From the NCBI GenBank assembly GCA_049840735.1, contig JASGJN010000022.1:448001-512000 (forward strand): DNA of 64,000 nt, given 5' to 3'. Shown one piece after another: positions 37,167 to 64,000 of the stretch. A program made the position numbers and the translations under genes. Within the stretch, counting starts at the first letter, position 1. Each line of letters starts with the position of its first letter. The notes under the pieces are model-generated. The model was given only the letters and a program-made list of their open reading frames with translations, did no database searches and was not told the origin of the DNA. Source of the DNA: Anaeromyxobacter sp. Lineage in GTDB: Bacteria; Myxococcota; Myxococcia; Myxococcales; Anaeromyxobacteraceae.

Positions 37167-37239
37167 AAAAAAAAAGAACTGCAAAGCGCAGCTGAAGTGG
37201 CGGGGGGGGACCTACCTCAACGGGCTGCTTTGCAGTTCT
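37167..37239 (-). terminator. intrinsic terminator formed by the sRNA hairpin
   Basis: 13-bp perfect basal stem ending in a run of 9 T on the - strand, exceptional in this GC-rich sequence. Confidence 0.8.
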
Positions 37240-37241
37240 GT
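37167..37241 (-). ncRNA. putative sigma54-dependent hairpin sRNA with C-rich loop (Pxr-like context)
   Basis: AGAACTGCAAAGC...TGAGGT-AGGT-C8-GCC-ACTTCA...GCTTTGCAGTTCT-T run; starts ~12 nt after the sigma54 -12 box. Confidence 0.72.
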
Positions 37242-37251
37242 CCGGATACAG

Positions 37252-37268
37252 AGCAAGCAGGGTGCCAG
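37252..37268 (-). promoter_or_regulatory. sigma54 (-24/-12) promoter
   Basis: CTGGCACCCTGCTTGCT matches TGGCAC-N5-TTGCW with exact GG-N10-GC spacing. Confidence 0.88.
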
Positions 37269-55062: not shown

Positions 55063-55948
55063 GTGATCAGGTACGGACCGGCTGGCTGGGACTACCCTGA
55101 CTGGGCGGGCACGGTCTACCCGGCCGCCCCGCCGCGCGGCTTCGACCGGCTGGCCTACCTGGCGCGCTGGTTCGCGACCGTCGAGATCAACGCCACCTTC
55201 TACCGCCCGTACCCGGCGGACGTGGCGGCCCGCTGGGCCGAGCGGGTGGCGGCGCAGCCCGGGTTCCGGTTCGGCGTGAAGCTCTGGCGCCGGTTCACCC
55301 ACCAGCGCGAGCCGTTCGACGCCGACGAGGTGGCCCAGGCGCGCGCCGTGCCCGACGCGCTGCAGGCGCAGGGGCGGCTCGGGGCGGTGCTGCTCCAGTT
55401 CCCCTGGTCGTTCAAGCGCGACGAGGCCTCGCTGGAGTGGCTGCGCGGCCTCTTCCCGGCGCTGGAGGGGCTGCCGCTGGTGCTGGAGGTCCGCCACGCG
55501 TCATGGGACGAGCCCGAGCTGCTGGCCGAGCTCGAGGAGGCCGGGGTCGGGATCGTCAACCTGGACCAGCCGATGTTCCGGCGCAGCCTCGGGCCGGCGG
55601 CGCGCGTGACGGCGCCGGTCGCCTACGTGCGCGTGCACGGCCGCAACTGGAAGGACTGGTTCAGGAAGGGGGCCGGGCGAGACGCTCGCTACGACTACCT
55701 CTACTCGGCCCGGGAGCTGGCGCCCTGGGCGGAGCGGGATCCGCGCCATGGACCGCTCGCCCCGGGCGCCCGACGTGTATGTCGTGACCAACAACCACTT
55801 CCGCGGCCAGGCCGTCGCCAACGCCAAGATGCTCGAGGCGCAGGTGGAGGGCCACCCCGTGGACGCCCCGACCGAGCTGGCCGCGCGCTACGCGGCCGCG
55901 CTGGGTCCCTGGATCGTGCCGGGCACGATCGGGGACGCGGCCAGGTAG
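55063..55948 (+). CDS. DUF72 domain protein (frameshift ~55738)
   Basis: GPAGWDYPDW, VEINATFYR, LLQFP, EVRH.SW, YVRVHGR, RYDYLY, NNHFRGQA. Confidence 0.88.
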
Positions 55949-56053
55949 GTCCGCGCCGCGGACCACCGGCCGTTCCGCGGACCATCACCTCGCGTGAGAG
56001 CGCACGCGGGCGTGCATTCCGGTGCTGGCTCGGCCATTGCTCATCCCCCGTGC

Positions 56054-56729
56054 ATGGGCCGCACCGCGCGCTTCATGCTCGTCGAGGAGGGGAGCTCCAA
56101 CCACTGCACGTGGAAGGCGCGCGACGACGAGAGAAATCCTGGACATGGTCGCCGGCGCCCGCGACGAGCTCCTGCGTCTGCTCGGACACTACAAGGAGCG
56201 GTACGGCATCCTCATCCGCTCCTACTGCCTGATGGGCAACCACCAGCACGTCGGGCTCACGACCACGCGCGGCCTGCAGGCGTTCAGCCGCTTCTGGCAG
56301 TGCGTGAACAAGCAGTTCGCGGACTCGATCAACCAGCAGACCGGACGCAAGGGCCAGGTCATCATGGAGCGCATGCGCTCGCCGCGCATGGACAACGACG
56401 AAGGCCACGTCGTACGGGTGATGCGCTACATCGACCAGAACCCGGTGGAGGCCGAGCTCGTCCGCTCGGCCAAGGACTGGAGGTACTCGAGCCACCGGCA
56501 CTACGCGCTGGGCGAGCCCGACCCGCTGCTCGACGACCCGCCGGAATACCTGGCGCTGGGGCGCACGCCCATCGAGCGCCGCAAGGCGTACCGCGCGCTG
56601 TTCGCGCAGCCGCTCGAGGAGGAGGCGCACCCGCCGGCTGGCGACGCCGCCGAGCCTGCCTCGGGCGACGTCGCTCCCAGGACCCCGAAGAAGGGCGAGG
56701 GGGGCGACCCGCCGCCGGACAGCTCGTGA
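56054..56729 (+). mobile_element. REP-associated tyrosine transposase (RAYT, Y1 HUH) (frameshift ~56135)
   Basis: SYCLMGNHQH (HUH), RYIDQNPVEAELV, WRYSS. Confidence 0.85.
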
Positions 56730-58603: not shown

Positions 58604-60482
58604 TCAGTTCTCCGCCGAGTGCAGGCCGCCCGTGCCGGCGCGGAAGGACAGGTTCACGCGGTCGGTGCCGGGCACGCGCGCCGTACAGCTCCACAGGCAG
58701 GCCCCGCAGTGCACGCACTTCTCGCGCTCGAACGAGGGCACCCCGCCCTCGCCCGGCCGGATGGCCTCGGCCCGAGCAGATCTCCACGCAGACCCGCTTG
58801 CCGCATGCCCGGCACAGCTCCGGATCCACGAACACCACGTGGTCGGCGTAGCCGGGCGCGGCCTGGACCTTGCCGCCCAGGAGCAGCGCGTCCTGCTGCG
58901 ACACCAGCAGCTTGCCGTCCAGCGGGACGGCCGGCCACCCGGCCCGGTCCATGAGCGCGTCGTGCAGCGGCACGCCCCGCGCCTCGCAGTCCGCCCGCAG
59001 CCGGGCAATCTCCTCGGCCGGGATCCGCCCCGCGTAGAACCCCTCCAGCGTGCCGACCTTCTCGGCCGGGTGCGGCGGCTCGTGGCCCAGCGACACCTTC
59101 CCGCCGGTCAGGCCGGAGAGCGCCATCCCCACGAGCCCGGTCACCACGCCGCGCTGGAAGCCGTCGCGCGCCTTCTCCGCCACGCGCCCCTCCGCCTCGA
59201 CCCAGCTGTCGCGCCGGCGGGTCACGTAGGCCGCCTCGAGCTGCTCGCGGGAGAAGGGCTGCCCGGCCTCGAGCAGCGCGATGACCGCCTCGCCCAGCTG
59301 GGCGCCGGTGGCGAAGGCCTCGTCCACGCCGGAGGAGGTGAGCACGTTGGTCGAGCCGGAGCCCTCGCCGATGCGGGCGAAGCCGTCGCCGGCCAGGAGC
59401 GGCTCGCCGCGCCGGCCGGACTCGAGGATCGACTTGGCGCCCCAGGAGCGCAGCGTGGAGTCCTTGAGCCAGCGCCAGAGGTAGGGGTGCTGCACGTAGT
59501 GCTGCAGGTAGCGGTAGCTGGTCCGCACCGGGGACTCGAACCAGCTCGGCACGAAGATGCCCACCGAGGCCACCCGGTCGGGGTGGACGTAGAGGAAGCC
59601 GAAGATCTCCGGCTCGGGGAAGCCGAAGGTGTGGAGCACGGTGCCGGGCACGAGCGGCGTGTCCTGGGGCAGGTCCACCACGAACTTCATGCCCACCGCC
59701 CAGTCGCGCCGGCCGTGGCTGCCGGGCATCCCCAGCGCCTCGTCCAGCTGCCGCCCCACCGCGCCCACCGGGCCGTCCGCCACCACGGTCAGCCCGGCGC
59801 GCACGTCCATGCCGGGCAGGTAGGCGGCGCCGTCAGGCCGCCCGGCCCGGTCCACGCCCTGGTCCAGCAGCCGCACGCCCTTCACGGCCTGCCCCTCCAC
59901 CAGCGCCCCGGCCACCGGCGTGCCCGGCCAGACCTGCACCGTGCCCGAGGCCATCACCTGGCCGGCCATCCACTGCATGAGCTGGCCCATGGAGAAGACG
60001 AAGCCGTCGCGCTTGTGCAGGAAGCCCGGCGTCCAGGGCAGCCGCAGCGCCTCGGCCTCCACCGGCAGCGCCTTGCGCAGCGCGCGGATGGTCCGGTCGG
60101 CGCCGCGCAGCGCGGCGGAGCGCCGGCTGGCGCCGATGGGATCGAGCAGGTAGAGCACCTCCTCGCGCGCCACCCTGGCCGCCATGGGGATCTGCGCCGG
60201 ATCCAGGTCCGGGAAGGCCTCCCGCAGCGAGCGGCCGCGGGTCACCACGCCGGAGACGCCGAAGCCGGTGTCGTCGGCCCGCTCGTAGCAGAGCACCTGG
60301 AGCGGCAGGCCCGGCGAGGCGCGGCTCTCCAGCGCCGGCTTCGACGGGTCGGCGAGCCGCCGCGACAGCGTGGTGAGGAAGCCGGCCGCGGCCGGTCCGA
60401 AGCCGACGCAGGCGATGTCCACCGCCATGCTGGCGCGCGCCGGCGCCTCGCCCTGCGTCCCCGTTCCCTCGACCGGATCCAT
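58604..60482 (-). CDS. ETF:quinone oxidoreductase / FixC-FixX fusion with C-terminal 4Fe-4S domain (frameshift ~58772)
   Basis: VGFGPAA FAD motif, WGAKSILESG, C-terminal CRAC..CVEIC and CVHCGAC. Confidence 0.82.
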
Positions 60483-62982: not shown

Positions 62983-63738
62983 TCATGGCGCGGCGGCGAA
63001 CTCCGCCACCACCGGCGCGTGATCGCTGGTGCCGAAGTCGGCGAGCACCGCGCAGCGGGTGACCCGCCGGGCGAGCGGCTCGCTGGCCAGCACGTAGTCG
63101 ATGCGCCAGCCGATGTTGCGCTGGCGCAGGTTCCGCCACGGCGCCCACCAGGTGAAGAGCCCTTCGTTCTGCGGATTGACGGCGCGCCCCACGTCCACCA
63201 GCCCGCAGGCCAGCAGCTGCTCCAGGAGCGCGCGCTCCTCCGGGAGCTGGCCGATGGCGCCGGCCTTGCGCTCCTTGGGGTGCACATCCTGCTCGGTGCG
63301 CGCCACGTTGAGGTCGCCGCAGAGGATCAGCTGGCGGCCGGCCGCCCTGGCCTCGGCGGCCCAGGCCACCAGCGCCTCGAGGAAGCGCAGCTTCGCGGCC
63401 AGGTCCTTGCCGCCGTTGGGCACGTAGATGGACGCGACCGTCACGCCGCCCGCCTCGGCGGTGGCGATGCGGGTCTCGTGATCGAAGGGCGGGTGGGCGA
63501 AGCGCGGGCCCTCCAGGGCCAGCTCGCGCCGGACGTGGAGCCCGACGCCCGAGTAGGCGGTCTCGCCGTGCCAGAGGCAGTGATACCCGGGCAGCTCGCA
63601 GAGGGCGGCGGGGACCTTGGACGGGGGCGCCTTGATCTCCTGGAGGCAGAGGACGTCGGGCGCCTCGCGCTCCAGGAAGGCCTGGACCTGCGCCTCGCGC
63701 GCCCGGATCCCGTTCACGTTCCAGGTGCTGATCTTCAC
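62983..63738 (-). CDS. xth: exodeoxyribonuclease III
   Basis: TWNVNGIRAR, LCLQEIK, YVPNG, GDLNVA, GWRIDY, SDHAP. Confidence 0.94.
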   Translation of the reverse strand: MKISTWNVNGIRAREAQVQAFLEREAPDVLCLQEIKAPPSKVPAALCELPGYHCLWHGETAYSGVGLHVRRELALEGPRFAHPPFDHETRIATAEAGGVTVASIYVPNGGKDLAAKLRFLEALVAWAAEARAAGRQLILCGDLNVARTEQDVHPKERKAGAIGQLPEERALLEQLLACGLVDVGRAVNPQNEGLFTWWAPWRNLRQRNIGWRIDYVLASEPLARRVTRCAVLADFGTSDHAPVVAEFAAAP

Positions 63739-63792
63739 GCCGCGACCTCCGGCCGGAGGTCTTAGCGCAGCCGTAATGGTTTTTCCGCCCTG

Positions 63793-64000
63793 AAAAGGCC
63801 TGCGCGCCGGTCCCTGCGGGGACAGGGGCGGCGCGCGGCGGGGTCGTTCAGGGAAGGAGCCCGGAGGCGGCCGTCGGGGAACGGCCGCCTCCAGGTGCTG
63901 CGTGGCTGCTCGGGGAAGCAGCTTGCTGCGTCCGCTGCGGGGACAGCGGGGTCCTGCGGTGCTGCATCGGGGAGTGCGTCTGCTGCGGCTGCGGTGCTGC
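63793..64000. ncRNA. candidate multi-hairpin structured RNA with invariant CGGGGA (+) / TCCCCG (-) loops, probably truncated by window end
   Basis: Five hairpins with different stems but identical hexaloops at 63817, 63875, 63911, 63938 and 63968. Confidence 0.6.

Follow-up and report, generated by a model that had tools for sequence, protein, structure and literature searches.

A single-copy array of five hairpins with one common hexaloop in Anaeromyxobacter sp. as a candidate multi-C-loop small RNA

Among the described bacterial RNAs that come closest to the locus reported here, all cited from the available parts of the respective papers, sX13 comprises three stems with 4C or 5C loops, works independently of Hfq and requires 4G motifs close to start sites (PMC3771888). 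The cuckoo RNAs consist of two to four adjacent hairpins that present one loop motif on highly variable stems (PMC4615179). CcsR1-4 are processed out of the 3' UTR of the DUF1127 gene ccaF1, which encodes a small protein, and CcaF1 in turn binds the array of hairpins in the ccaF1 transcript (PMC8034643). In Pxr, the loop of stem-loop 1 (SL1) is needed for function (PMC5684412).

We analysed a 64,000-nt stretch of DNA (hereafter the window; G000:C22:448001-512000) from an Anaeromyxobacter genome of 6.67 Mb, which has a GC content of about 74% and is 94% complete. At the end of the window, a 294-nt spacer between xth and a gene for a 117-aa protein, both on the minus strand, contains five hairpins with one common hexaloop, which reads CGGGGA on the plus strand and UCCCCG on the minus strand (Table 1); all five CGGGGA loops of the original prediction are present. 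Counted outward from the loop on the plus strand with G·U pairs allowed, the stems of hairpins 1-5 have 7, 12, 7, 7 and 5 pairs. The corresponding numbers of Watson-Crick pairs only are 5, 12, 6, 6 and 0, the last because the closing pair of hairpin 5 is U·G. Read along the minus strand, the small-protein gene is followed by a CGCAG-rich leader, the five hairpins with U-CCCC-G loops and a run of four U residues, and the array lies about 20 nt behind the stop codon of the 117-aa gene, in the same direction. The linker word CGCAG occurs 10 times in 225 nt, compared with 0.6 expected, and similar CGCAG-rich windows are found elsewhere in the genome. The linker repeats extend about 10-12 nt beyond the window end (to about 64010), and the sequence past position 64000, in which the original prediction proposed to look for further hairpins, contains no sixth one. 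The UUUU placed by the original prediction after the last minus-strand hairpin is there, as part of CCUUUUC behind hairpin 1, and this element is possibly a weak terminator. Runs of at least four U residues after a gene-end stem are rare in this genome (6 of 578 sense, 3 of 578 antisense), so the run is not diagnostic. A G-quadruplex or i-motif formed by the five G4/C4 runs is unlikely, as the 21-52 nt spacers between them form hairpins.

Table 1. Coordinates of the array, its neighbours and the Pxr-like gene (window positions unless a locus is named; a dot marks features with no strand assigned)
Feature	Position	Strand	Remarks
Pxr-like sRNA gene	37170-37266	-	sigma54 promoter TGGCAC-N5-TTGC; one long hairpin; U-C8-G loop; U-tail; behind a sigma54 activator
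xth, exodeoxyribonuclease III family gene	62983-63738	-	Pfam PF03372, E=7.9e-31; downstream neighbour on the minus strand
Hairpin 1	63788-63853	.	loop 63817-63822; long interrupted stem; last hairpin on the minus strand, then CCUUUUC
Hairpin 2	63860-63895	.	12 perfect Watson-Crick pairs (63863-63892); loop 63875-63880; extra U·G pair on the minus strand only
Hairpin 3	63904-63923	.	6 Watson-Crick pairs and one G·U on the plus strand; loop 63911-63916
Hairpin 4	63931-63950	.	6 Watson-Crick pairs and one U·G on the plus strand; loop 63938-63943; hairpin 1 copy with one inserted G-C pair
Hairpin 5	63963-63978	.	weak; plus-strand pairs U·G, A-U, C-G, G-C, U·G; two C·A mismatches on the minus strand; loop 63968-63973
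CGCAG(CA) repeats, hairpin-free, four copies	63979-64000	-	5' part of the RNA on the minus strand; same word makes the linkers
117-aa gene	L001:4033-4386 (4392 also given as end)	-	just beyond the window end; stop about 20 nt from the CGCAG repeats
LysR gene	L001:4516-5418	+	divergent; after the 117-aa gene

As originally argued, the array exceeds what chance would produce. In 20,000 dinucleotide shuffles of the spacer, the maximum was two hairpins per shared hexaloop, which was reached in 139 shuffles, compared with five such hairpins observed on the plus strand and four on the minus strand. Of the 35 genomic clusters of at least three same-hexaloop hairpins, 25 were listed, and only the array places five of them on five different stems; the others among the matches listed are tandem repeats or three-copy chance cases. 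Genome-wide, CGGGGA forms the loop of 34 hairpins against 19.5 expected, which is no clear enrichment, and many other loops score higher. By blastn, model and pattern, the array is present in a single copy in the genome.

Judged by sequence comparison, the array is an orphan, with no homolog anywhere searched and thus no cross-species covariation. The best blastn match in 40 relatives (E 1.7e-4 over 50 nt) is no real homolog. A triple-CGGGGA pattern gave 370 matches in 37 genus genomes, and the 150 listed were, by eye, tandem repeats, CRISPR repeats or chance. With a stricter pattern, 58 of 363 genomes of the order had a match, with no homolog in 362 Myxococcales genomes and no second array among the 150 listed of 219 matches; in a check of 30 loci, the only one besides the array with two stems of at least four pairs proved to be a tandem repeat of one stem. 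Such patterns cannot require base pairing. A single-sequence covariance model, for which 32 candidates were scored per genome, matched 12 of the 91 other family genomes at E≤0.05 (best score 28.5 versus 188.9 bits), and none of the 10 alignments examined keeps the loops. A linker-loop pattern, in which one gap is set to 8 nt so that relatives may escape it, found 44 loci in the GTDB collection, none of them with paired loops. Viral scans yielded clustered stems in 0 of 80 and 6 of 120 loci among the matches listed, all six being tandem repeats, plasmid and phage searches for the array returned nothing below E 0.06, and a metagenome scan with the small protein gave one weak locus that has no array. 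One IMG/VR contig (L316) carries three 38-nt tandem copies with CGGGGA-loop hairpins on an identical stem, and its sequence is unrelated to the array. The array was seen neither upstream of xth orthologs (0 of 29 loci, one of which gave 137 nt only) nor behind other genes of the small-protein family (0 of 24 loci), and looser YCCCCR loop arrays were not found in five close genomes and 422 kb of DNA from the closest genomes. In the window, no Rfam family reaches its gathering score; around the array, a relaxed limit of E 10 gives eight weak rows, all well under their cut-offs, with no sX13, Csr/Rsm or RF01812 row. The Rfam and covariance-model searches proposed in the original prediction brought up no family and, among the alignments examined, no relative that keeps the loops. 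That prediction had also named lack of loop conservation in relatives as an outcome that would speak against it; formally this is what was found, because no relative searched carries the array at all.

In this genome, an inositol monophosphatase/ADP-ribosylglycohydrolase gene lies beyond the LysR gene. The same gene directly follows xth in 4 of the 29 xth-ortholog loci (G002, G003, G006 and G014), and the array, the small gene and LysR therefore look like an insertion here. The DNA upstream of xth shows several further features. A perfect palindrome at 63744-63761 contains the GGAGGU ribosome-binding site of xth in one arm on the minus strand (-13.1 kcal/mol) and could, in this predicted fold, mask that site; no such palindrome was seen by eye in the 29 ortholog loci. 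An element of about 178 bp with terminal inverted repeats lies upstream of xth in G006 (L055:2354-2526) and G014, with G002 also named, and G014 carries 14 or more copies of it that are nearly full length. In G017, G007, G023 and G042 (L070, L071, L075 and L080), a conserved non-coding stretch upstream of xth combines a G7/C7 run with an adjacent strong terminator-like hairpin and a long A/U tail, and is possibly another small RNA.

Comparison of the five units with each other indicates how they arose. Hairpins 1 and 4 share a 25-nt direct repeat with 80% identity and are distinguished by one inserted G-C pair and by one of their first five pairs. Between hairpins 3 and 5, an A-U pair has been inserted and further changes are present, and in the nine pairwise comparisons other than that of hairpins 1 and 4, 3-5 of the first five stem pairs differ. 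Since the stems of hairpins 1 and 4 and of hairpins 3 and 5 are related, and not unrelated as first described, the array grew by local duplication, with arms that changed in pairs and loops that stayed constant. All 30 loop positions are identical across the five hairpins while 1-5 of the first five stem pairs differ in all ten comparisons, from which we infer purifying selection on the loop. Local duplication together with template switching can mimic stem covariation.

The reading we lean towards, tentatively and without granting it an even chance, is that the array is a multi-loop small RNA from the 3' region of the small gene, whose UCCCCG loops on the minus strand pair with G-rich start regions and repress translation. 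The array would be transcribed as the 3' part of the message of the LysR-linked small gene, and the RNA would be released or processed from the 3' UTR, with transcription ending at hairpin 1 and the U4 run behind it. Its loops would then pair, independently of Hfq, with GGGG(A) ribosome-binding sites near start codons and thereby repress translation of the target mRNAs. Among 4,363 predicted genes, CGGGGA occurs 68 times at ribosome-binding distance and 27 times in a control window, and GGGGA 181 and 71 times, respectively. The computed pairing of UCCCCG is stronger with GGGGAG (-10.2 kcal/mol) than with GGAGGA (-5.6 kcal/mol), and no match to Hfq was found in this genome. A small RNA gene with a C-rich loop is already present in this lineage, in the form of the Pxr-like element at 37170-37266. 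With a six-base seed, 4,365 start regions offer 80 perfect CGGGGA and 548 GGGG candidates, so that no single target can be named. Counting against this reading are a G·U bias towards the plus strand, hairpin 5, which barely forms on the minus strand, the lack of a homolog in everything searched and the lack of a promoter consensus. Neither strand of the array carries a sigma70 or sigma54 consensus or a terminator call. In the eight sequencing runs analysed out of 18, pieces that are 97-99% alike, and thus from near-identical strains, cover the small gene, one of them from an RNA library; none covers the array, which at a depth of 2-4 speaks neither for nor against its transcription.

A somewhat less likely alternative is that the array is a functionless, strain-level palindromic minisatellite, in which a CGCAG-rich hairpin unit was duplicated, template switching copied the changes from arm to arm and the loops have simply not changed yet. 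Its presence in a single genome and the relatedness of its units by duplication with paired insertions agree with such an origin. Template switching is described, in the available part of PMC5941160, as correcting imperfect inverted repeats in bacteria, which perfects and homogenises their arms without selection. The genome also abounds in palindromes whose stems vary around a constant cGCAg loop, with 143 hairpins of this kind and 374 copies of one family, and the same spacer received the 178-bp multi-copy element in G006 and G014. However, template switching does not protect loops, and not one of the 30 loop positions varies, although most stem pairs do; a rough estimate, subject to ascertainment bias, would predict about a dozen loop changes. 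Furthermore, no loop is inverted, the genome holds no second copy and neither REP family matches (nhmmer scores below zero). The array has no special likeness to the G006 element, whose score is equalled by 519 of 1,500 intergenic pieces, and a borderline similarity to the G006/G014 insert vanished against intergenic controls. Should the neutral explanation be correct, the array warns that covarying stems around a constant loop, when seen in one genome, do not prove RNA selection. The original step from a constant loop on unrelated stems to selection on RNA structure was in any case overstated: the stems are duplicated, template switching homogenises arms (PMC5941160, available part), and covarying stems on a constant cGCAg loop exist at the DNA level in the GTAG-tagged REP family of this genome. 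That REP-like family (374 pattern copies) is exemplified at G000:C22:466246 (window 18246). A second multi-hairpin family has 68 pattern matches, for example at about 27900 and 28090 in the window. The genome has six Y1 transposase matches, and an ORF at 56022-56729 with an HxH-like motif has the look of a RAYT/Y1 transposase by eye, with no Pfam match.

The original prediction left the strand undecided, and the evidence is still split, although the minus strand appears somewhat the likelier of the two to be functional. Its folding z-score is -4.86 (0 of 200 shuffles as good), compared with -1.68 for the plus strand (10 of 200), a gap that is probably in part generic for C-rich versus G-rich strands. 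In the predicted whole-fold ensemble, all five loops are open on the minus strand (0.80-0.99), where four of the hairpins fold as U·G-closed CCCC loops; on the plus strand, the values for hairpins 1-5 are 0.93, 0.97, 0.85, 0.53 and 0.23, with loops 4 and 5 partly buried. The minus strand is also the direction of both neighbouring genes, and on it hairpin 1 is followed by the four U residues. Stability divides between the strands, hairpins 1 and 5 being better on the plus and hairpins 2 and 4 on the minus strand. Hairpin 5 has folding energies of -5.6 (plus) and -1.6 (minus) kcal/mol, and its minimum free energy fold on the plus strand differs from the fold that presents the loop. As the original prediction stated, the stems gain G·U pairs on the plus strand, where the first non-Watson-Crick pair is G·U in four of the five hairpins (P 0.006 by composition, 0.19 if changes are transitions).

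This G·U bias and the greater stability of hairpins 1 and 5 would fit a functional plus-strand RNA, whose five CGGGGA loops might form kissing contacts with the C8 loop of a Pxr-like small RNA 27 kb away or dock a protein other than CsrA; the partly buried loops 4 and 5 and the lack of any promoter or terminator argue against it, and we consider it unlikely. The C-loop at 37201-37210, to which the original prediction had likened the array loops, indeed turns out to be the Pxr SL1-like loop of a conserved small RNA gene with a sigma54 promoter (Table 1). Pxr SL1 is the sole Rfam row for this element and stays below the cut-off (15.3 bits, E 3.4). Of 37 genus genomes, 5 have conserved the element; its promoter does not vary among them, whereas its stem shows a C-G/G-C swap. 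Anaeromyxobacter is not named in the available parts of the Pxr literature searched. A plus-strand sponge for this RNA in particular is still less probable than a functional plus strand as such. The loop CGGGGA can form 5 bp with the UCCCCCCCCG loop (-9.7 kcal/mol), and the conserved Pxr-like gene has a sigma54 promoter and a U-tail; however, pairing of 5 bp with a run of C carries little specificity, and no such array was seen in the four further genomes that have the Pxr-like gene. We give similarly little credence to a broader version, according to which a newly born, lineage-restricted riboregulator was built by hairpin duplication and its plus-strand GGGG loops titrate the C8 loop in an organism without Hfq or CsrA. 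A true plus-strand function would offer a handle on the switching off of Pxr-type RNAs, whose targets are described as still uncharacterised in the available part of PMC11928866, and a true sponge would be the first for a Pxr-type RNA.

The position of the array in the 3' region of the small gene also suits a cis-acting 3' UTR module on the minus strand, in which the hairpins dock a protein or block a nuclease, set the stability of the small-gene message or insulate xth, with no RNA pairing involved. A precedent is the binding of CcaF1 to the hairpins on the mRNA that encodes it (PMC8034643, available part). Against such a module, which we regard as quite improbable, Pfam, NCBIfam, PDB and Foldseek searches link the 117-aa protein to no known RNA-binding family or fold, and the array is absent at 24 other loci of the small-gene family. 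The protein itself (coding score +0.34) belongs to a real but unnamed family of 172 proteins, with no Pfam, NCBIfam, PDB, fold or Foldseek match. The family has a core of about 55 aa, for which a beta-alpha-beta-beta model is predicted (pLDDT 65), and occurs in 12 of 92 family genomes, often in two copies, the second one here at G000:C22:306306-306497. The DNA upstream of its genes retains a GTCCAATCGA...GATAAC box, often also a divergent LysR gene. The leader of the small gene (L001:4404-4446) folds as a hairpin (CCGTCGG ... CCGACGG), and similar leader hairpins are found in several relatives.

It is very improbable that the array is part of a protein-coding sequence with its loops read as Ser-Pro or Arg-Gly: loops 2-5 are spaced 36, 27 and 30 nt apart in one phase (1 in 27 by chance) and there are open frames on both strands, but codon bias is absent from every frame, GC is flat at all three codon positions (0.71-0.78) and the six-frame coding scores of -0.44 to -0.56 lie below the 5th percentile of genes (+0.07). 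The stretch is non-coding, and hence not the 3' part of a conserved CDS, a possibility that the original prediction had raised against itself. Elsewhere in the window, two ORFs at 55063-56232 and 58632-60482, which we take to be DUF72-like and ETF-quinone oxidoreductase-like, respectively, seem to leave their frame near the ends, possibly through assembly frameshifts. CsrA sites have the consensus ANGGA in a CANGGA context. A plus-strand CsrA/RsmA sponge of the CsrB/RsmY/RsmZ type, as first suggested by the GGA at the end of all five loops, is hardly credible and is rejected because CsrA is missing from the genome studied here and from 91 of 92 family genomes: PF02599 has no match in the 94% complete assembly and one match in the family, a 28-residue piece at a contig start, and there is no Rfam Csr/Rsm match. 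The GGA in the five plus-strand loops stands in the context CGGGGA, with G where the sites have A.

Several known elements resemble the array in part. GTAG/CGTC-tagged REPs and REPINs share with it intergenic palindromes, covarying stems and a constant loop, and they are abundant in this genome (PMC3733652, available part). The array is no REP or REPIN, being single copy and scoring -2.8 and -3.3 with nhmmer against the two REP families of the genome; it holds no GTAG or CTAC tag and three CGTC tags whose place is not constant. The best Rfam row is Atu_C4 (RF02499), which matches a CCGU-UCCCxx-ACGG hairpin on the minus strand. Identity with it is rejected, since the score of 24.7 bits (E 0.028) does not reach the cut-off of 80. 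The 14-mer concerned is present in 75 of 92 family genomes, where it mostly falls within coding DNA, and in 48 loci checked its stem never exceeds six pairs. With Pxr stem-loop 1 (RF01812), as described in the available parts of PMC5684412 and PMC5568312, the array shares an Hfq-free lineage and a C-rich loop closed by U and G, which is U-C8-G in the Pxr-like element of the window and U-C4-G in the array. Pxr, however, has one C-loop, a sigma54 promoter and a place behind a sigma54 activator, none of which the array has, nor does it match RF01812.

On the preferred minus-strand reading, the closest likenesses are to cuckoo RNAs and sX13, compared here with the available parts of their descriptions. 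With cuckoo, CcsR and alpha-r14 RNAs, the array shares adjacent same-loop hairpins, five in this case, on variable stems 3' of a small-protein gene. It differs in its loop, which is UCCCCG here and CCUCCUCCC there, in the lack of an Rfam match and, from the CcsR subtype, in the upstream 117-aa protein, which is not DUF1127 and falls into no Pfam family; cuckoo RNAs are moreover reported from alphaproteobacteria, whereas the array is found in Myxococcota. With sX13 of Xanthomonas, the array shares several stable stems that each show a CCCC loop (here by prediction, with minus-strand loops 0.80-0.99 unpaired); Hfq is not needed there and has no match here, and G-rich start regions are plausible targets (PMC3771888). 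The differences are the number of hairpins, five against three, the repeated CGCAG linkers, the lack of conservation across relatives and another phylum, and none of the eight Rfam matches at E up to 10 points to sX13 homology by sequence or model. By analogy, the array would thus work like sX13 or a cuckoo RNA, but it falls outside both groups by loop motif, upstream protein and Rfam. As a putative RNA known from one genome, it is a lead rather than a discovery. If the minus-strand reading is correct, the multi-C-loop, Hfq-independent design known from sX13 and cuckoo RNAs extends to Myxococcota, where Pxr is the main studied small RNA, and such an RNA is seen being built by the duplication of one hairpin behind a LysR-linked small gene. 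The array belongs to no Rfam family and has no published account in the open literature searched; on the likeliest reading it would be another form of the multi-C-loop small-RNA design.
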